Origin: Dehalococcoidia bacterium
Lineage (GTDB): Bacteria; Chloroflexota; Dehalococcoidia; SZUA-161; SpSt-899
Direction of reading: 5' to 3'
Assembly: GCA_046545575.1 (NCBI GenBank)
Contig: JBKGZM010000003.1
Location: 5,118-69,117 of the forward strand
Length of the DNA: 64,000 nucleotides
The notes beneath the pieces were generated by a model. The model searched no databases. It saw nothing but the letters and a program-made list of their open reading frames with translations, and had not been told where the DNA came from. Shown piece after piece: positions 12,321 through 31,962 of the stretch (position 1 is the first letter of the stretch; each line of letters begins with the position of its first letter). A program made the position numbers and the translations under genes.

Positions 12321-12674
12321 GGCCAAGTAGACCAGGTGACCGCCCGCCGAAGGCGGGAGGAAAGTCCGAGCTCCTCCGGGCAGGGTGCTGGGTAATCCCC
12401 AGGAGAGGTAACTCTCGGAAAGTGCCACAGAAACAAAACCGGTCGCCTATGGCGGACCAAGGGTGAAAAGGTGAGGTAAGAGCTCACCGCGCTCGCCGTG
12501 AGGCGAGTGGCGGGTAAACCCCACCCGGAGCAAGGCCAAATAGGAGGGGAGAGTGCCCGGCTCGTTCGGACCCTCGGGTTGGCCGCTCGACCCCGATGGC
12601 AACATCGGGGCTAGATAGATGGTCACCATCCGCCTCTGGCGGATACAGAACTCGGCTTACAGGTCTGCTTGGCC
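12321..12674 (+). ncRNA. rnpB: RNase P RNA, bacterial type A
   Basis: Universally conserved blocks read directly: GGAGGAAAGTCCGAGCTCC, ACAGAAACAAAACC, GGGTAAACCCCACCCGGAGCAAGGCCAAATAGG and ACAGAACTCGGCTTACAGG. The P1 helix pairs ggccaagtagacc (12321..) with ggtctgcttggcc (..12674). Confidence 0.95.
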
Positions 12675-12690
12675 GGCATACCACGAACAT

Positions 12691-23861: not shown

Positions 23862-24599
23862 TTGGATGTTATGAACCGTGAGATCAGCACAGATGAAGAG
23901 ACAATACCCGATTTCGTCAATAGACTGGCGGAAGGCAAGCTTTTAATTCCATCATTTCAGCGTGAATTTGTATGGGGTCCTGAGGATATCATAAAGATCT
24001 GGGACAGCATCTATCGTTTTTACCCGATAGGAAGCATTCTCTGTTGGGAGACAACTATCGACCTGAATGTTGCCCGTCAATTAGGCGGGCTTCTTCTACC
24101 TGTCGATACAGAGGGCAATGGGAAACACGGAAAACGGGTTTACATCCTGGACGGGCAGCAGCGGGCAACATCTCTATTTGTCTCAATGTATGGCGGTGAA
24201 GGAAAGGTAAAAGGTCAAAGCAACTTCGATTTCACGCTGTACTTTGATGCGACAGATGCCACTTTTTTCTTCGCAAATGAGTTTAAGAAGCGCAAACGCA
24301 AAGCAAATCCGGCCTTTCTCATCCGCCTGAGCGACGTTCCCAAGTGGGAGGATGATTTCCATCAGCGTATATCGAGAGAGCCGGGGTTCAGTCAGAAGAT
24401 CGAACAGAACCTGCGTCAATTAAGCCGCGTTTTCAGTGATTATAAACTGTCCTTCATTCGCATTAAAAACTTTGACGTCGCAGCGGTATGCGATATATTC
24501 GAACGTATAAACCAAGAAGGGAAAGACCTGCAGTCGATCGATATAATGGTAGCCAGAACCTTCAGGAATTATGATTTTGTAATAGAAGAGGATATGTAG
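23862..24599 (+). CDS. DUF262 (GmrSD N-terminal / ParB-like NTPase) domain protein, apparently C-terminally truncated
   Basis: 245 aa. Hallmark motifs IPSFQREFVW, ILDGQQRATS and FERINQEGKDL. The ORF stops about 20 aa after the last motif. Typical family members continue for 100-350 more residues. Possible pseudogene remnant. Confidence 0.7.
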   Translation: MDVMNREISTDEETIPDFVNRLAEGKLLIPSFQREFVWGPEDIIKIWDSIYRFYPIGSILCWETTIDLNVARQLGGLLLPVDTEGNGKHGKRVYILDGQQRATSLFVSMYGGEGKVKGQSNFDFTLYFDATDATFFFANEFKKRKRKANPAFLIRLSDVPKWEDDFHQRISREPGFSQKIEQNLRQLSRVFSDYKLSFIRIKNFDVAAVCDIFERINQEGKDLQSIDIMVARTFRNYDFVIEEDM

Positions 24600-24618
24600 T
24601 TTCTGCGAGTAGATGCAT

Positions 24619-25686
24619 CTATTTGAGTTCCTGCAGCCTTGTCTTCATCTGGTTCAAGCGGGGGAGGTCGGTTAGTCCGGATACCAGCGTTACTGCACCG
24701 ATCTCGGTGCTCCCCTTATCAGGGTAATCACCGTATCTAACCTCACCGACTTTTAGTTTTTGTTCAAGATGGCCTTTCCCGGCTATGATGGCCTGTGTAA
24801 ATAAATGCTCCGGTCTCCCGTAAACCACCAAGCCCGCCGCCTTTGCACCACTGACGTCACAGGCGAAGGTCAACATGCTTTCATCCGTGCTCTCTTTTAT
24901 GATTTCCTCCAGCCTTTTCTCGTCAGGCTTTACTCCTTTCGCCCAGAACCGACTCTTAAGTCTGATCTTCTCGCTGCGGTGCCCGATGGTTGAAAAGCCT
25001 CCGCCCTGACCGAAGGTAGCTATAACTTCCGAAGAGCCAAATACCTCCTGCGGGGGATGTTTGGCTTCCCCTGCCCCCAGAAGAATGGTCAATCTCGCTG
25101 CTATATCCTCGTTAATTCTCTGGTACATCTTCTCCACGGGTTCACCGGTCTCGCTGATCTCCTCATGCATTTCGTACTGACCGTTATCCACAAGTAAGGT
25201 ATTATCGAAATTAGCCCGCCACGACTCGGTGCTCCTGAGCGTATTGGCGATGCACAGCGCCTCCTTATCTGACGCCATCCCCACAGTGGAAGGTAATACC
25301 GCGAGTCCATAGACTGGCTTATGGTATATGTCCCTGATCTCCTTTGCCAGTATATGCCCTCCACCAGCTCCAGTCCCACCAGCCATTCCTGCCACAATAC
25401 AATAAGCTTCGGGGTCCAATTTCCTGCTCGCCCTCGCAATCCTGTCCATCATCTGGGACAAGGACTTCTGAGCCATCTCTTCGCTAAGGTCAATATTGGC
25501 CCCTACCCCTCTACCTTTTTGCCTGTACTTGCCTATTAGTATCTTTTCGTCGATGTTTTTCAGTCCAGCCAGGTCCAGCCCCTCTGTGTTGATCACTATG
25601 GCAGCATAGCGTTTCTTGTCCATTCCCATAAGGGCATCGACAATTTTAGCTCCTGCCTGACCATAACCAATCCAGAGCATCCTCAT
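24619..25686 (-). CDS. tubulin/FtsZ-superfamily GTPase, CetZ-like
   Basis: 355 aa. IGYGQAGAKIVD (T1), tubulin-signature-like AGMAGGTGAGGG (T4), VYGLAVLP, LLVDNG, ILLGAGE, YGDYP...LVSGLTDLPR. The block order resembles archaeal CetZ (comparison from memory) rather than bacterial FtsZ, and it lacks the FtsZ C-terminal linker and peptide. Confidence 0.75.
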   Translation of the reverse strand: MRMLWIGYGQAGAKIVDALMGMDKKRYAAIVINTEGLDLAGLKNIDEKILIGKYRQKGRGVGANIDLSEEMAQKSLSQMMDRIARASRKLDPEAYCIVAGMAGGTGAGGGHILAKEIRDIYHKPVYGLAVLPSTVGMASDKEALCIANTLRSTESWRANFDNTLLVDNGQYEMHEEISETGEPVEKMYQRINEDIAARLTILLGAGEAKHPPQEVFGSSEVIATFGQGGGFSTIGHRSEKIRLKSRFWAKGVKPDEKRLEEIIKESTDESMLTFACDVSGAKAAGLVVYGRPEHLFTQAIIAGKGHLEQKLKVGEVRYGDYPDKGSTEIGAVTLVSGLTDLPRLNQMKTRLQELK

Positions 25687-25695
25687 GGTGAGGTT

Positions 25696-25724
25696 ACTAT
25701 ACCATTAAATTATTAATTTTGCAA
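25696..25724 (-). promoter_or_regulatory. promoter of the CetZ-like gene (TTGCAA-17-TATAGT), predicting a leaderless or near-leaderless mRNA
   Basis: On the minus strand, ttgcaa (25724..25719) and tatagt (25701..25696). Only 9 nt (aacctcacc, with no SD sequence) separate the -10 from the ATG at 25686. Confidence 0.4.
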
Positions 25725-25801: not shown

Positions 25802-26524
25802 ATGATAGGAGACAGGATAGTTGTAGATGAAGTACATGTCAAGGCTGCGGAAGCTATAGCGGGGTTGCTTCTACCTCAGATAGAGGAGAGCACCGACAGG
25901 TTCATAATCAGTATCGCCGGCGAATCCGGCAGTGGCAAATCGGAGATCGCTACAGTACTTTCAAGTATCTTTAATAGCGGGGAGAAAAGGTGTGTGACCC
26001 TGCAACAGGATGACTATTTTGTGTATCCGCCAAGAACCAATGCCGTATTACGTAGAAATGATATTAGGCATGTGGGGATATCCGAGGTTCAACTCAAAGC
26101 CCTTGACCGGAATCTGGATGAGATCGCTGCAGGGAAACCTCAAATCAAGAAGCCCCTGGTGGTTTTTGAAGAGGATATGATCATCGAGGAGACGATTAAT
26201 CTCGATGGTGCCAATAGCATACTGGTCGAAGGAACCTATACCACTCTCTTGAACAATGCTCATTACCGCATCTTTCTTGAGCGCACCTATATTGATACAG
26301 CCAGGATTCGGAGACAAAGGATAAGGGAGAAGCAGGATGAGTTCCTGGAGAAGATCCTGCACATCGAGCACAAGATCATCTCCTGTCATAAACATAAGGC
26401 CGATATTATCGTAACCAATGACTATAATGTTACTCTCAATTCCGAAAGGAAGATCGAAGCAGCCAATTCAAGCTCAAACGAGGTAGCTTATCATCAATGT
26501 AGCCATTCCCAGCATAATGAGTAA
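25802..26524 (+). CDS. uridine kinase / phosphoribulokinase family P-loop kinase
   Basis: The ORF is open from 25730, and ATG 25802 (MIGDRIVV...) is the likely start. Walker A IAGESGSGKSE, QQDDYF and ILVEGTY motifs match the Udk/PRK family. The C-terminal tail overlaps the mgtE 3' end by 51 nt. Confidence 0.65.
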   Translation: MIGDRIVVDEVHVKAAEAIAGLLLPQIEESTDRFIISIAGESGSGKSEIATVLSSIFNSGEKRCVTLQQDDYFVYPPRTNAVLRRNDIRHVGISEVQLKALDRNLDEIAAGKPQIKKPLVVFEEDMIIEETINLDGANSILVEGTYTTLLNNAHYRIFLERTYIDTARIRRQRIREKQDEFLEKILHIEHKIISCHKHKADIIVTNDYNVTLNSERKIEAANSSSNEVAYHQCSHSQHNE

Positions 26525-27826
26525 TCCGCCCGTATCGGTGATGGTGGTAACCACCACGGTTGACCCGAGGGCAGGATCCACTTTCATAAGCTTTAATAGC
26601 AAGGGGATTACCACCCCGCTCAACCCCGCAACTATCATGGTCGCAAACATGGCTCCTCCCAGGACCACAGCCAGCCATAAGTCATCTTTCCAGAAAAATG
26701 CTATATTCCCGGCGATAACTGCTATCACCAGCCCATTAATGGCCGCCAGCCCCAGTTCTTTAAAAAGTGCTCTCTTCGCATTTCTGAAGGATACCTCGCC
26801 CAAAGCAAGGCTGCGCACCATGATGGTTAAGGTCTGAGCACCTGCATTCCCTCCCTGACCGGCGATAACGGGGATGAAAACGGCAAGTGCCGCTACCTGA
26901 GCTATCGTGGATTCGAACAGGCCCACAACCACACCAGCCAGGATAGCCGTACCCAAGTTGATACTCAGCCAGGGTAGCCTTCTTCTTATGGAGTCCCTAA
27001 ATGGTGTGAGTATCCGCTCATTTTCGCTAACCCCAACCATGTGATACATATCCTCGGTGGCTTCCTCCTCTGCCACTTCCAGGGACTCCTTCAGGCGAAT
27101 TATACCTAACAGGCGACCTTCATCATCGATGACGGGCAAAGCTGAGAGGTCGTGACGTGACATGATGCGAGCACATTCCTCCCTGTCAGTATCCGCAGTC
27201 ACGAATATAACATCGGGGTTCATCACCTCACTTATTTTCTCTTCGGGGTCAGCCAGGATCAATTGTCTAAGCGTCAATGTTCCCTGTGGTCGATTCCTTC
27301 TATCAACGACGTATAGGACCTCTACCGTTCCCTGGGGCGGTTTGAGTCTTCTCAGTCTATCGAGTGCTCTCGCCGCTGTCATTCGTGAAGGAAGAGTGAG
27401 AACCTCAGGGGTCATCAGACCGCCCGCGGTGTCTTCACTGTAGCTAAGCAAGGGAGAGACCTGTTCCTTTTCCTCCATCCCCTCCAGAATCTCGTGACTC
27501 TCCTGCGGAGGAAAGCTCTGGAGTACATCCGCAGCCACATCTGGGCCTACATTATCCAATATAGGCAAAAGTGTATCCCGGTCTATTTCCTGAGATAGCC
27601 TCCTAACGTCTTCCTTTTTCAGATGCTCGAACAGGTCAGCTTGTTTTTCCTCATCCAGGTTAGGGAAAAGCTCCTTCTGCTCCGCTCTGTCCAGTTCAGT
27701 AAACGCCTGAGCTTGATCCGGTGCTCTGAACTGAGACAGCAGATCAATGGCTTTATCCCATTCTTGTTCCTGGACATACTGTTTCAGGTCATCTATTAGT
27801 TCCAGTATTTCTGTTGTCATAAGCAT
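26474..27826 (-). CDS. mgtE: magnesium transporter MgtE
   Basis: 450 aa. N-domain, tandem CBS domains and 5 C-terminal TM helices with GNAGAQ and PALGSTVVVTTITD motifs. Confidence 0.9.
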   Translation of the reverse strand: MLMTTEILELIDDLKQYVQEQEWDKAIDLLSQFRAPDQAQAFTELDRAEQKELFPNLDEEKQADLFEHLKKEDVRRLSQEIDRDTLLPILDNVGPDVAADVLQSFPPQESHEILEGMEEKEQVSPLLSYSEDTAGGLMTPEVLTLPSRMTAARALDRLRRLKPPQGTVEVLYVVDRRNRPQGTLTLRQLILADPEEKISEVMNPDVIFVTADTDREECARIMSRHDLSALPVIDDEGRLLGIIRLKESLEVAEEEATEDMYHMVGVSENERILTPFRDSIRRRLPWLSINLGTAILAGVVVGLFESTIAQVAALAVFIPVIAGQGGNAGAQTLTIMVRSLALGEVSFRNAKRALFKELGLAAINGLVIAVIAGNIAFFWKDDLWLAVVLGGAMFATMIVAGLSGVVIPLLLKLMKVDPALGSTVVVTTITDTGGLLIMLGMATLMISYLV

Positions 27827-28326
27827 CTTCTCCTGGTCTTTGTTCCTCTTGTCATGTTTACCTTCGGCTATTCAATTCTGCCAAGTTGATCCCGCGTGTA
27901 GTACTTTGGCTCTTCATGGATGACAACGGAGCACTCCGCTTACTATTATATCGTTAGGAGCTATAGAGACAAATTGGCCCGATTTTATTCAGTGAAATTC
28001 GGGGGAATAATGGCCCTGAACTTCTCTCAAGAATATACCACATCGGTGGCTAAAGCCTATCACAAACACCACAGACTGTCCATATCAGCGGAGCCATTAT
28101 CCAAACAGTCACACCGCAATAAAAATCAGTCTCATCCTCTGGCTCACGCAAGCATTCGGGATGTATTCATTACTGAAAATAATTGAGTATAATATATGAG
28201 CATGCAGGGTCGCTTATGGAAAGGAAAGCAATACCACCTTCTTCTCAGCGTGATCGTAGCTGTGCTCGATCTCTCGGCACCGCTGGAGATGTTTCCCAAA
28301 TGACCTATGCATGTGGAGAGGAAGAA

Positions 28327-31300
28327 ATGGACGCCTTTGAGGAAGTTAATAACCGCTTCCGGACGAGTTTAAAGGAACATCTGGCCCATGCACTTCGACA
28401 ATTTGAGGAAGCCGACATAGTCGTTGGTATTCCTTTCTACAATGAGGTTGATACCCTCTCACATGTAGTGAAAACGGTAGAAGAAGGTCTTAAGAGGTTT
28501 TACCCTGATTCACGGTCAGTGATCATAGCAGTTGGTTCTTCTGCAGGACGAGAGGCGCTCGAGGCGATCGAAGCGCTCCCCCAAAGCAACATACGGCGAA
28601 TGGCTTTCTTGCTGGAGGATGGTCAGTTGGAGGGGAAAGGTTGGCATATCCGTGCCATCATGGAGATAGCGCTCAATCTCGGCGCTGATCTTGTCCTTTT
28701 AGAAGCTGATTTAGAGAGCCGCTTTAACAACGGAGAGGTTGAAGGCCTCTCTCCTGAATGGATTGATCTTCTTCTCCGACCGATAAAAAGCGAGGGGGTG
28801 GACCTGGTTCTTTCCAGGTTCAACTTCCATCACCTGGATGCCCAGGTTTGCAGCAATGTCGCCCAGCCTCTCCTTGCTGCTCTCTATGGTTACTCCCTTG
28901 GTTGTCTCATAGGCGGACAGTGGGGGATATCTTACCCTTTACTTCGACTATATTCTCAGGAGCCTCCTCAAGCGTGGATGACAGCTATCACGGGATATGG
29001 AATAGATAGTTGGCTTGCTACCACAGCGATTGCCAGCGAGGCTCGTATCTGTGCAGCAAATCTTGGCATCAAGATTCACACAGTATCATGGGCGAAGTCG
29101 GAACTCGTCTCAAGGCAAGTTATCAAATCCCTGTTTGACCAGATAGTCAATGTTCCGAAATGGTGGAGAGGAAACGGCGCGAGTGATGCGGCTCCCATGG
29201 TACAACCAATACCAGTGATGGGGGCACAGAAGATGCAACGCCCCGATCCAGTTACCATACACCCCCACGTTCTGATGAGTAGATACAGTAATAGCTTCAA
29301 TCTGTTTCACTCACTCTATCAGAGGATCTTCCCAAAGGAAACGTATCAGCACTTGGCCAAAATGGCCAGCATTGACCATGCAGAGGCTGATTTCCCCCTT
29401 ACGCTGTGGGCAAAGATCGTTTATCGGTTTCTTCTGGCCTATGCCTTCAAAACAGATATGAGCAGGGACGATCTTTTCAATGCCTTCATATCTCTCCACA
29501 ACAGATTTGTGGTCAGTTTTGCAACAGAGATGGGAATCCTGAGAAATAAACTGAAGGCACTACCTTCGTTGGAAGCAGAGGAATTGCTATCCGCAAAAGC
29601 CGGGAAAAGAGAGGAAGACCTCACGAACGAGTTTCTACGTCAATGTCCTGGTTTCTTAAGCGCGTGGGAAAAGAAAGCCGAGGAACGCAAACCCCCCGTG
29701 CCGCAAATAACCTATCGGGAATTTATCCCAGGGGTGCCACTGGTAGTACCTCCGGAACTGGTCGCTCCTGATGGTAAAAAGGTATACGCCGAGGAAATCT
29801 ATAAATCAATATTCACCAGGCAAAAGGCGGAATTCGAGCAGTTCGTGCATGGGTTCTTAAACGTGCCCCAAGGCGCTCGCTCAGGCGAAATAACGGCGGC
29901 GATACGGGACTTCCTGCATCAAGTGGAGGTTGCGATTCCTCCTACTGGCAGTCTCTCTTCCCTTATGCGGACGAAAGAATTAGTGAATTTCGTTTTCCAC
30001 AACTTCCCGCATGAAGAAGGGTTCTCCCTGACCAGTGACATGGCCTTCTGGCTTTTATGGCAGCACCCTCCCTCCTCTTTGGTCAACAGAATGGGGTATA
30101 GCAACCTCTCTGAACTCTTGCAAGACTACGATCCCCTGGATACGCTTGCGCTCGCAAGCTGGATTGAGGATCGGGACTATATGGAAGAACTGCGGAGGCT
30201 TATAGCTGAGAACATTCGCCCTGAGCATTTCACCATCTGTCCTATAGAGCCCTTGGTGGTCAGCCACCAGGATTTCCCTTCACTCGTGGAGATGAAGGAG
30301 TCATCTGCCCTGGATAAGTTAACATCCCGCGTGGTCGTGTCAAGCCTTCACAAAGGTATGGGGGGTGAGTTTCCCAAGCTTCGCTACCTTACTAGCATTA
30401 CCAAGAACATTGTGGAGGCAGAGAGATTTGGAAAGGTATGGCAAAGGTTTGCCTCCATCAGGAGGGAGTTTGGCCTCAGGGTGATAAATTCACTGGAGGG
30501 ACATTGGGGGAGAGAGCCGCTTTCAGCACATAATATTTTTGAGGATGGCCACCATCGCATGCTGACAAAGCGGCTTAGGCAAATGGCGGATAAGATAGGC
30601 TCGGAAGCTGATAAAGACTTAAATCCAGCGGAATTATCGGGCAGCCTTAAGGCCATGGCCGATTCATACCATTTAGCGCTTACCCTTCCTGATGGCAAAT
30701 TTGTTACCTGTTCGGCCTGGTCCTGGGCAAGCTACAGCTTCAAGGGTGGGCAGGACTTACCCTCTCCACTTTCACTTCACGTCGAGAGGGACTGGTTTTC
30801 ACGTGAATTTTTGATTGAATATTTCAAGGCCGCAGGTGGAAAAGAAACAGAGGTAGAGCAAAGGATTGTTGAGCTCATGGAGCAGGGAAGAGAATGGGAG
30901 GACCTGGCGTCTATCCTGTTGGGCACCGAGAAAGAAACCGCTCAGGAGATAGTCTCAAAGGATACGGCTCCCTCTATGCAGCCAGAAGCCGGTCTACTGA
31001 AAAGATTTGGCGGCAACCCAATTCTGAATCCTATCAAAAACCATTATTGGGAGTCCAAATACGTGCTTAACCCGGGTACTATAAGACTCGGAGACAAGAT
31101 TTATCTGGTTTATCGGGCATTTGGGGATGACGAGATCTCCCGGCTTGGATTGGCATTAAGTGAGGATGGTTTCAGATTCTCTGAGAGGCTGGAGTTTCCT
31201 ATATTCGGGCCGAAGACCAAGAGCGAGGAAAAGGGATGTGAAGATCCTCGATTGACCCTGATAGGCGATTGGATTTATATGCTCTATACCGCATATAGCA

Positions 31301-31962
31301 GTACAGTGGCGCAGATCGCTCTCGCATCCATAGCGGTTCAGGACTTTGTTAGCTTCCGCTGGAACAAGTGGAGACGGCACGGCCTGGTCTTCCCCGGCTT
31401 TACTGACAAAGATGCAACCATGTTCCCCGAGCAGTTCGATGGGGAGTTCGCAATGCTCCATCGTGTTGTGCCACACATATGGATCACCTTCTCTCCCCAT
31501 CTCCGTTGTCCCTGGCCGCGGAAGGAACATAAGATAGTGGCGGGTACAACTTCCGGAATGCTGTGGGATGCAGTAAAGATAGGTGCTGGAGCTCAACCAA
31601 TAAAGACAAAATATGGATGGCTTCTCGTCACTCATGGCGTCGACTATACGCATATCTACCGTCTCGGTGTGATGTTGCTCGACCTGGATGATCCCTCAGT
31701 GCTTCTCTACCGTTCACCGAACCCTGTGCTTGAGCCAGTGGAGGATTGTGAGATAGGACATCCTGACACATGTTGGGTGCCAAATGTGGTGTTCACCTGT
31801 GGAGCCATAGCAGCCAAGGACAAGAAAACTCTCGAAGACGAGGATGAGATACTGGTTTACTATGGAGCCGCTGATACGTCAATCAGCGTGGCCACTGCCA
31901 CGGTTGGTGACCTCATCCCCAAGCAAGTCAGGGATGCTCTGCTAGTCAATTACCGTATCTAA
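28327..31962 (+). CDS. large cytosolic multidomain protein: N-terminal GT-A-like glycosyltransferase, about 600 aa unassigned, C-terminal GH130 (DUF377) glycoside-phosphorylase-like beta-propeller
   Basis: The ORF is open from TTG 28183. ATG 28327 (MDAFEEV...) has GGAGAGG 5-6 nt upstream, giving 1211 aa. N-terminus: VVGIPFYNEVDTL...LLEAD (GT-A nucleotide-sugar fold pattern). C-terminus: GNPILNP...NPGTIRLGDKIYLVYRA...GCEDPRLT...YTAY...YYGAADT, typical of GH130. Confidence 0.7.
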   Translation: MDAFEEVNNRFRTSLKEHLAHALRQFEEADIVVGIPFYNEVDTLSHVVKTVEEGLKRFYPDSRSVIIAVGSSAGREALEAIEALPQSNIRRMAFLLEDGQLEGKGWHIRAIMEIALNLGADLVLLEADLESRFNNGEVEGLSPEWIDLLLRPIKSEGVDLVLSRFNFHHLDAQVCSNVAQPLLAALYGYSLGCLIGGQWGISYPLLRLYSQEPPQAWMTAITGYGIDSWLATTAIASEARICAANLGIKIHTVSWAKSELVSRQVIKSLFDQIVNVPKWWRGNGASDAAPMVQPIPVMGAQKMQRPDPVTIHPHVLMSRYSNSFNLFHSLYQRIFPKETYQHLAKMASIDHAEADFPLTLWAKIVYRFLLAYAFKTDMSRDDLFNAFISLHNRFVVSFATEMGILRNKLKALPSLEAEELLSAKAGKREEDLTNEFLRQCPGFLSAWEKKAEERKPPVPQITYREFIPGVPLVVPPELVAPDGKKVYAEEIYKSIFTRQKAEFEQFVHGFLNVPQGARSGEITAAIRDFLHQVEVAIPPTGSLSSLMRTKELVNFVFHNFPHEEGFSLTSDMAFWLLWQHPPSSLVNRMGYSNLSELLQDYDPLDTLALASWIEDRDYMEELRRLIAENIRPEHFTICPIEPLVVSHQDFPSLVEMKESSALDKLTSRVVVSSLHKGMGGEFPKLRYLTSITKNIVEAERFGKVWQRFASIRREFGLRVINSLEGHWGREPLSAHNIFEDGHHRMLTKRLRQMADKIGSEADKDLNPAELSGSLKAMADSYHLALTLPDGKFVTCSAWSWASYSFKGGQDLPSPLSLHVERDWFSREFLIEYFKAAGGKETEVEQRIVELMEQGREWEDLASILLGTEKETAQEIVSKDTAPSMQPEAGLLKRFGGNPILNPIKNHYWESKYVLNPGTIRLGDKIYLVYRAFGDDEISRLGLALSEDGFRFSERLEFPIFGPKTKSEEKGCEDPRLTLIGDWIYMLYTAYSSTVAQIALASIAVQDFVSFRWNKWRRHGLVFPGFTDKDATMFPEQFDGEFAMLHRVVPHIWITFSPHLRCPWPRKEHKIVAGTTSGMLWDAVKIGAGAQPIKTKYGWLLVTHGVDYTHIYRLGVMLLDLDDPSVLLYRSPNPVLEPVEDCEIGHPDTCWVPNVVFTCGAIAAKDKKTLEDEDEILVYYGAADTSISVATATVGDLIPKQVRDALLVNYRI

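Follow-up and report, generated by a model that had tools for sequence, protein, structure and literature searches.

A CetZ-type tubulin homolog in a Dehalococcoidia chromosome and the bacterial clade to which it belongs

The subject of this work is a tubulin-superfamily gene on a 64,000-nucleotide stretch of a Dehalococcoidia (Chloroflexota) genome (assembly GCA_046545575.1, contig JBKGZM010000003.1), hereafter the window. The gene lies on the minus strand at positions 24619–25686, stop codon included, and encodes a protein of 355 amino acids (aa). The explanation that we consider the best overall, and a reasonably probable one, is that the protein is functional and falls in the CetZ branch of the tubulin/FtsZ superfamily, as part of a clade kept in Dehalococcoidia. 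Judging by sequence, it is most likely an anciently acquired CetZ filament that depends on guanosine triphosphate (GTP). The CetZ-type assignment had been proposed in a first-pass annotation from the letters of the DNA alone; the domains, the sequence and the predicted fold bore it out, and the place of the protein in the trees agrees with it.

The open reading frame runs from the ATG at 25686 to the stop codon at 24619–24621, and its translation holds the tubulin/FtsZ GTPase hallmarks that had been noticed at first reading, IGYGQAGAKIVD and AGMAGGTGAGGG. Pfam divides the product into two domains. The domain that binds GTP, at the N-terminus (residues 3–169, 25180–25680, minus strand) includes the T1 motif GYGQAG (residues 7–12) and the T4 motif AGGTGAG (residues 102–108) and matches Tubulin (PF00091) at 7e-21 with 75.8 bits (cutoff 33). 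The second domain (residues 181–350, 24637–25146, minus strand) matches CetZ_C (PF21011) at 4e-28 with 98.4 bits (cutoff 21.6). This pair of domains is present in every clade member and is common to CetZ1 and CetZ2 of Haloferax volcanii. No match to FtsZ_C (PF12327) was found in the 355-aa protein, and the score against the NCBIfam ftsZ equivalog TIGR00065 was 51.2 bits, far below the cutoff of 295.2, which agrees with the earlier view that the block structure is not FtsZ-like. The Tubulin_2 model (PF13809) gave 21.9 bits over residues 52–152 only, below its cutoff of 27. No second tubulin-family open reading frame was found within the window.

A phmmer search against all PDB sequences placed H. 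volcanii CetZ1 (4b46) first, with E 4.8e-57 over residues 1–348; CetZ2 (4b45) aligned over its full length at 3.9e-31. The best FtsZ reached 6e-9 (about 1e-8, N-domain only), TubZ 7e-6 and BtubA about 1e-3. CetZ1-type proteins align with the bacterial protein from end to end at about 34–39% identity. The CetZ1 blocks that the annotation had listed proved accurate: IGFGQAGGKVVD, LIGQSRVKGHGVGAD, GLGGGTGSGGAPVLAKHLKRIYTEPVYGLGILP, GAGE, GGDYP and LLSGVTNVPR all lie in the HMMER alignment to 4b46, so that the GAGE, GDYP and SG(V/L)T..PR blocks are common to both proteins. An AlphaFold2 (AF2) model built from 21 clade sequences had a predicted local distance difference test (pLDDT) score of 87.6 and a predicted template-modelling (TM) score (pTM) of 0.88. 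In Foldseek comparisons of this model the TM values were 0.81/0.86 for CetZ1 and 0.82/0.87 for CetZ2, and ranks 1–4 were occupied by CetZ1, CetZ2 and the CetZ of M. thermophila (Methanosaeta), followed by FtsZ (about 0.7) and TubZ (0.72–0.80). The sequence search and the structural comparison with solved CetZ and FtsZ, both of a kind suggested as checks, returned CetZ1 and CetZ2 as the best matches.

Bacterial FtsZ shares with the CetZ-like protein the superfamily and the GTPase fold; it has FtsZ_C, a linker with a C-terminal peptide and a place in the division/cell-wall (dcw) operon, whereas the window protein has none of these. With TubZ/PhuZ, BtubA/B and FtsZl-1 (Tubulin_2) the superfamily fold is common and sequence similarity is weak. 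As identities for the protein, a divergent FtsZ, TubZ/PhuZ, BtubA/B and FtsZl-1 were all rejected, each failing on its own defining features. The presence of TubZ structures among the fold matches, together with a truncated GmrSD_N gene directly downstream that hints at a defence or mobile island, would fit a plasmid or phage segregation tubulin of the TubZ/PhuZ type residing in an integrated element. We consider this highly improbable: CetZ1 and CetZ2 are far better matches, both in sequence (5e-57 vs 7e-6) and in Foldseek E-value, the protein carries CetZ_C, and the GmrSD_N neighbour occurs at 0 of 42 related species-representative loci. TubZ/PhuZ genes sit on plasmids or phages with a TubR/centromere partner, and TubZ has its own type of C-terminal helix extension; the cetZ-like gene lies on the chromosome and keeps its synteny inside sub-clades in many species, with no tubR/tubC-like neighbours, integrase or compositional island around it.

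The host chromosome is bacterial. All of the bacterial markers named at first reading (the two-component pair, mgtE, type-A rnpB and uvrB) were found. The window carries a class-A (bacterial) RNase P RNA at 12324–12675, the classic bacterial cluster rpsB-pyrH-uppS-cdsA-dxr-rseP-ispG, and also glnA, a TRAP transporter, gap, coaX/coaBC, plsX, argH and comM. GC content is even along the window (0.514 in the gene vs 0.507 overall), and the third-position GC content and codon usage of the cetZ-like gene are in the range of its neighbours, with a mid-range codon-usage distance. Recent horizontal transfer was rejected, as its compositional signal is absent.

Since the family is otherwise archaeal and data from metagenome-assembled genomes (MAGs) are prone to chimeras, the possibility that archaeal DNA had entered a bacterial contig through misassembly or mis-binning had to be considered, and the annotation had itself named a chimeric join at 23.8–26.5 kb as something that would undo its reading. 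The join did not materialise. L044, a contig of an independent NCBI MAG (GCA_046537795.1), matches the window at 99.84% identity along 6.3 kb and has its genes in the same order, mgtE-kinase-cetZ-GmrSD_N-histidine kinase, and a Logan contig with the identical protein is 100% identical over 21 kb; both are collinear with the window. In addition, homologs occur in 42 Dehalococcoidia genomes, closed chromosomes included, the gene shares a contig with bacterial ftsA, ftsZ and mraZ at loci L001–L003, and its composition matches the host. A chimera is thus excluded as far as sequence data permit, and we assign mis-binning a negligible probability. Between the window and L044 the cetZ-like gene has only two nucleotide differences, both synonymous.

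The gene is one of many. A word-indexed protein search returned 99 clusters with 52–66% identity. Almost all of them are of full length, with 352 or 373 aa, and every named source among them was Dehalococcoidia or Chloroflexi. When one genome for each GTDB species was scanned with an alignment, 42 loci were obtained, all in Dehalococcoidia/SAR202/Chloroflexota MAGs; many of these are marine, and closed chromosomes of 4.1 and 4.4 Mb are among them. About 40 genomes have the gene at full length. It should be noted that a scan of the GTDB species genomes with the single protein gave no matches, and that the loci were found by the alignment-based scan. When 1.84 billion representatives were searched exhaustively, which gave about 580 homologs, all of the bacterial clade came together in one 50% cluster. 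The next tier consisted of three rare sequences, P0101, P0102 and P0105, at 36–41% identity, and the following tier (30–39%) included CetZs from Halogeometricum, Haloplanus and Thermococci and an archaeal contig with aIF2-gamma, S6e and aIF5B.

These many bacterial relatives (99 clusters, 42 species genomes) show that bacterial CetZ forms a clade passed on by vertical descent, which a single isolated transfer would not. The annotation had held that its reading would fall if many bacterial relatives placed the protein in a known clade; the relatives are there, but the placement in a known FtsZl-1, TubZ or FtsZ clade is not. Its question about orthologs at the same locus in sister genomes also has a divided answer, since homologs are present in 42 species but synteny holds within sub-clades only. 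No conserved partner gene was found across the 42 loci, where sub-clade synteny is with unrelated metabolic genes, and genomic context is for this reason silent on function.

Neighbour-joining trees were calculated from Kimura distances over about 350 columns with 100 bootstraps and were rooted on three Dehalococcoidia FtsZs. The CetZ_C-bearing sequences, bacterial group included, split from FtsZ at 100. The Dehalococcoidia clade is monophyletic with bootstrap 100 and joins P0102 (90–94), then P0101/P0278 and P0105 (100). The deepest branch is that of a Thermococcus CetZ (P0162), inside which the bacterial group falls at a node with support 68. Thermococcales CetZ sets the boundary of the family (Brown & Duggin 2023). 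The bacterial group branches apart from the CetZ1 and CetZ2 subfamilies, and the remaining CetZs formed a clade excluding it in 0 of 100 replicates, with the other backbone bootstraps at 0–32.

Genomic neighbours characterize two of the rare sequences. P0105 (L048:3743–4795, also L049) adjoins a methionyl-tRNA synthetase with only archaea among its named relatives (Thermoprotei at 69%, Asgard lineages at 56–61%). The P0101-like gene (L131, L132) adjoins a CoA-ligase-like gene, for which the best relatives with a name come from Chloroflexi/Dehalococcoidia (53–43%). We regard the P0105-like sequences as a candidate donor lineage and the P0101-like ones as a candidate second bacterial lineage. 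A scan of the species genomes for P0101, P0102 and P0105 gave no matches, and the contigs that carry them are short.

The family is otherwise archaeal, the bacterial group branches within it, and one of the sequences that cluster with this group comes from an archaeal contig. The favoured and simplest reading is therefore that an archaeal donor outside the haloarchaea passed the gene to Chloroflexota long ago and that vertical descent followed. Of the two origins offered at first reading, the nesting and P0105 thus favour the archaea-to-bacteria transfer. The other, an undescribed bacterial tubulin lineage, does not stand, as CetZ-like proteins in Chloroflexota-Dehalococcoidia had already been mentioned: Santana-Molina et al. 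2023 (PMC9871819) report bacterial Chloroflexota sequences that match a CetZ C-terminal hidden Markov model at ~1e-10 and branch with CetZ-like proteins. These are almost certainly the group found here. The published wording is "paraphyletic groups", whereas in our trees the main clade is monophyletic and the P0101-like sequences are separate; a second, P0101-like lineage would match that wording. Direct descent from haloarchaeal CetZ1 or CetZ2 was rejected, the group being apart from both and its identifiable archaeal relative being Thermoprotei-like.

Conservation within the clade is high, with a mean column identity of 67% and 77 invariant columns among 21 members, including G7, G9, Q10, G12, G103–G109, N168 and E220. 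The T1 loop, GxGQAG, is the CetZ consensus. Residues in individual columns were counted in 17 clade members, 3 sister sequences and 58 archaeal CetZ. In the T7 (synergy) loop region (residues 212–224, PQEVFGSSEVIAT, 25015–25053, minus strand), E220, which corresponds to the catalytic T7 glutamate E218 of CetZ1, is Glu in 17/17 clade members, and Q213 and E214 are invariant in the bacterial clade only. Two positions near the active site have changed. At position 217 (CetZ1 D215, FtsZ D209) the window protein has Gly in place of Asp; the clade has S14/G1/N1/A1, whereas Asp is present in 44/58 archaeal CetZ and in FtsZ. In the T4 loop, which carries the tubulin signature (residues 100–110, GMAGGTGAGGG, 25357–25389, minus strand), Ala102 stands in place of Gly; the counts in this column are A14/G2/S1 in the clade, A3 in the sisters and G51/58 in archaeal CetZ. 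Compared with CetZ1, the bacterial clade thus has D215 replaced by Ser/Gly and G108 by Ala. From published work, this T4 glycine, G108 in CetZ1, is the E. coli FtsZ G105 (FtsZ84 position), which gives the change its significance.

The M-loop (residues 241–255, IRLKSRFWAKGVKPD, 24922–24966, minus strand) has a conserved hydrophobic/basic tip, RFW, aligned with the CetZ1 M-loop motif LLSRL, which is essential for CetZ1 function. W248, G251 and P254 are invariant and F247 is conserved in at least 90%; the low pLDDT of this block is consistent with a flexible loop. Compared with CetZ1, the bacterial M-loop is ~16 aa shorter, an insertion follows the QYE motif, the T5 loop is 3–4 aa longer and the region after helix H6 is also longer. 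The bacterial protein is not halophile-acidic, unlike CetZ1 and CetZ2 of Haloferax.

By the AF2 model and the alignment, the window protein ends with its last helix. The statement at first reading that there is no linker and no C-terminal peptide is correct for this protein, and its sub-clade lacks the tail or LESLF-type peptide of CetZ1, but it does not extend to the 373-aa marine relatives, which have a short semi-conserved peptide. In these members (P0028, P0036, P0072; L011:10001–11122) a tail of ~20 aa ends in DGVPEPSxV or VVEPSVI, semi-conserved and missing from the window's sub-clade of 352–355 aa; it recalls the C-terminal peptides with which FtsZ and CetZ1 bind partners.

The loss of the first T7 acid (D to S/G), the Ala at the FtsZ84-equivalent T4 glycine, the tail-less C-terminus of the window's sub-clade and the want of conserved partner genes could together indicate a degenerating or repurposed relic of the transfer, which would bind GTP and form no dynamic filaments, being either a stable scaffold or a non-polymerising GTPase. 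A relic, however, would hardly be expected to keep a mean column identity of 67%, with the GTP-pocket residues and E220 invariant across deeply diverged species, to be full length in about 40 genomes, to differ only synonymously within a population and to conserve its promoter or Shine-Dalgarno signals. AGGTGAG also still fits the PROSITE tubulin signature, [SAG]GGTG[SA]G. On balance, we consider a relic unlikely and a functional CetZ the better explanation.

These bacteria carry FtsZ as well as CetZ. In the three nearest relatives of the window locus, L001–L003, ftsZ (Tubulin and FtsZ_C) and ftsA lie 1.5–2.5 kb from the cetZ-like gene, which is downstream of meaB and convergent with mraZ-rsmH-ftsA-ftsZ-orf99-Ig/collagen-like. 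The gene at L003:12474–13598 is a genuine FtsZ, with FtsZ_C, TIGR00065, a linker and C-terminal peptide and membership in the dcw cluster. In the MAG bin.164, ftsZ and the cetZ-like gene are both present on separate contigs. The absence of dcw context claimed in the annotation therefore holds for the window, which has no dcw genes, but not for L001–L003, where the cetZ-like gene abuts ftsZ.

The position next to ftsZ is variable. In L001–L003 the cetZ-like gene and the Ig/collagen-like gene are placed between meaB and orf99-ftsZ; in L054–L056 the slot between meaB and orf99 is empty and meaB directly abuts orf99 (L003:8809–12272 compared with L054:11314–12779). A different contig, L005, carries the cetZ-like gene in the MAG to which L054 belongs, while the gene of the window is found between mgtE/kinase and GmrSD_N/histidine kinase. 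This presence/absence polymorphism shows that the gene relocates as a one-gene unit and that the dcw association is not conserved.

The proximity in the three closest relatives and the published localization of CetZ1 at midcell during rod division bring up a second division protein, that is, a divergent FtsZ-like paralog that would act in the divisome beside FtsZ, like archaeal FtsZ2, and not as a shape factor. We find this improbable. The protein has no FtsZ_C and scores 51 bits against the 295 required by TIGR00065; the ftsZ adjacency is not conserved, with the slot empty in L054–L056 and the gene elsewhere in the window, L005 and all marine loci; the convergent orientation gives no co-transcription with dcw; and proteins of the window's sub-clade have neither a linker nor a C-terminal peptide by which FtsA could be bound.

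The dcw clusters are themselves of interest. The patterns of our FtsZ-based scan were too general and returned mostly FtsZ of other phyla, the informative loci being L051–L057, L106 and L125. The cluster is reduced to mraZ-rsmH-ftsA-ftsZ at L003:12474–16348 and also at L001, L002, L052, L054, L055, L057 and L106, and no ftsI, mur, ftsW or ftsQ was found between rsmH and ftsA in the reduced clusters seen. As far as is known, Dehalococcoides has no peptidoglycan and is bounded by an S-layer. The minimal dcw clusters are consistent with such a peptidoglycan-less lifestyle.

The genomic data also bear on expression. Both neighbours of the cetZ-like gene are on the opposite strand, so it forms a single-gene transcription unit. 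A consensus scan located a sigma-70-type promoter at 25696–25724 (minus strand), TTGCAA-17 nt-TG-extended TATAGT, which ends 9 nucleotides (nt) before the ATG. The same layout, 8–9 nt from the ATG, is common to the window and L001–L004 (five species), in which the T/G of the −35 element and TGnTAnAnT are invariant at the same spacing and the surrounding sequence is unconserved. No Shine-Dalgarno sequence was found upstream of the gene in the window or in L001–L004. The distance from the −10 element to the transcription start is usually ~7 nt. With the promoter 8–9 nt from the ATG, this implies a predicted leader of 0–3 nt, and the mRNA would be leaderless or near-leaderless. The gene orientation, the conserved promoter footprint and the missing Shine-Dalgarno sequence thus support the earlier description of the gene as monocistronic, with its own promoter and probably a leaderless mRNA. 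No intrinsic terminator was found after the gene.

The N-terminus MR(x)LWIG is kept in 41/41 loci where it is readable, and this conservation among homologs supports the first ATG (25686) as the start. The public gene call, P0001 (353 aa), begins at the second ATG (Met3), two codons downstream (window 25678–25686); the gene caller was probably misled by the want of a ribosome-binding site.

The marine sub-clades differ in this respect, having a strong GGAGG and a conserved GC-rich element upstream. At L008:4405–4461 and at ~18 marine SAR202-type loci the element, GTGCGGTCCGGCCAGCcttgGCTGG..GGGCCGACAC, lies just 5' of GGAGG, and its distal part is of variable length and often UUCG- or CUUG-capped. 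It may be a regulatory hairpin of the 5' untranslated region. RNAalifold gave only a weak consensus fold, with −2.67 kcal/mol, a stem of 5 bp and a single compensatory change.

How the protein might work can be proposed from its relatives. CetZ1 polymerises with GTP in vitro, and when its E218 is mutated, rods fail to form and filaments become hyperstable; tests of polymerisation or of a role in cell shape or motility have been confined to CetZ1 and CetZ2 of H. volcanii. Since E220 corresponds to CetZ1 E218 and CetZ1 polymerises with GTP, head-to-tail GTP-dependent filaments are probable for the bacterial protein as well. It would bind GTP and assemble as Haloferax CetZ1 does, the T7 loop of one subunit would complete the GTPase site of its neighbour, and hydrolysis would drive filament turnover. 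The changes of the T7 Asp to Ser/Gly and of the T4 Gly to Ala at the FtsZ84 position would probably slow hydrolysis and make polymers stabler. The basic/hydrophobic RFW tip of the M-loop probably serves lateral or envelope contacts, in the window's sub-clade with no C-terminal tail. The ancestor would have come from archaea by ancient inter-domain transfer and later moved within genomes as a one-gene unit.

The most speculative step is that such filaments would shape cells or organise envelope machinery in bacteria that apparently have no peptidoglycan elongation or division apparatus. This hypothesis is prompted by the minimal dcw clusters, which fit the biology of the peptidoglycan-less, S-layer-bounded Dehalococcoides, and the proposed role parallels that of CetZ1 in S-layer-bounded haloarchaea. 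In its full form, archaea-derived CetZ filaments would be the shape/envelope cytoskeleton of Dehalococcoidia in place of MreB and the peptidoglycan elongasome, a cross-domain transplant of archaeal morphogenetic machinery into bacteria with no wall, with re-tuned GTPase loops and RFW contacts in the tail-less sub-clade. We put this forward tentatively, as a possibility with the odds rather against it.

Several observations weigh against a functional, archaea-derived CetZ filament. The T7 Asp and the T4 Gly, near-universal in archaeal CetZ and FtsZ, are both altered in the clade, and as these two residues are close to the active site, GTPase-driven dynamics could be weak or differently organised. 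The C-terminal peptide, which in other superfamily members binds partners, is lacking in the window's sub-clade, and a family-wide partner gene is lacking at the 42 loci. The tree was made only by neighbour-joining and has backbone bootstraps of 0–32, so it fixes neither the donor lineage nor the number of transfers; there may have been several transfers or a back-transfer. The P0101-like sequences are probably a second bacterial (Chloroflexota) lineage, and, P0105 being on an archaeal contig, it may be P0105 alone that was transferred, from bacteria to archaea. Finally, polymerisation, GTPase activity and a cellular role are ascribed to bacterial CetZ by homology, and the peptidoglycan-less state of the hosts is deduced only from the minimal dcw clusters and from knowledge of Dehalococcoides.

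Other features surround the gene in the window. Downstream, at 23862–24599 (plus strand), a 245-aa protein consists of the N-terminal GmrSD (DUF262) domain alone, with no nuclease half, and 19 nt separate the 3' end of its gene from the stop codon of the cetZ-like gene. The window and L044 differ at ten positions, six of which fall in the 49 bases 24569–24617, which comprise the GmrSD_N 3' end and the spacer, and this cluster suggests that the GmrSD_N gene is a decaying fragment. On the other side, at 25802–26524 (plus strand), a uridine-kinase/PRK-like P-loop kinase gene is divergent from the cetZ-like gene at a distance of 115 nt, and its 3' end overlaps that of the convergent mgtE (26474–27826, minus strand) by ~50 nt. 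Nucleotide-metabolism genes near archaeal cetZ have been noted in published work; the kinase neighbour is not conserved at the other cetZ-like loci. Farther away, at 28183–31962 (plus strand), an unusually large protein of ~1250 aa has a C-terminal Glyco_hydro_130 domain and a long unannotated N-terminal part.

Recent papers term CetZ archaea-specific (e.g., PMC11621097), and a CetZ review surveyed archaea only. By this usage a CetZ-like protein in a bacterial host falls outside the name; an archaeal host is a taxonomic habit among researchers and not a molecular test. The bacterial CetZ group is real and conserved; it was noted in 2023 and never characterised, so its novelty is modest. The 2023 survey (PMC9871819) gave the group one sentence and no characterisation, and what is added here are the active-site changes, the coexistence with FtsZ, the minimal dcw clusters, the tailed and tail-less sub-clades, the leaderless promoter and the Thermoprotei-like sister. 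Because that survey had already flagged the group, the value lies in characterisation and testable hypotheses and not in discovery.

Taken together, a conserved bacterial clade means that the CetZ family crossed domains and was then long retained. The mechanism of CetZ has been studied only in Haloferax, with 3 M KCl needed in vitro, and for biochemical and structural work the CetZs of non-halophilic bacteria may be much more tractable than those of haloarchaea. They also offer a natural experiment on which features of CetZ are dispensable, namely the tail, the long M-loop and the T7 Asp. The finding bears on how cells are built and shaped in the uncultured, abundant marine SAR202 and in other Dehalococcoidia that seemingly have no standard peptidoglycan machinery.

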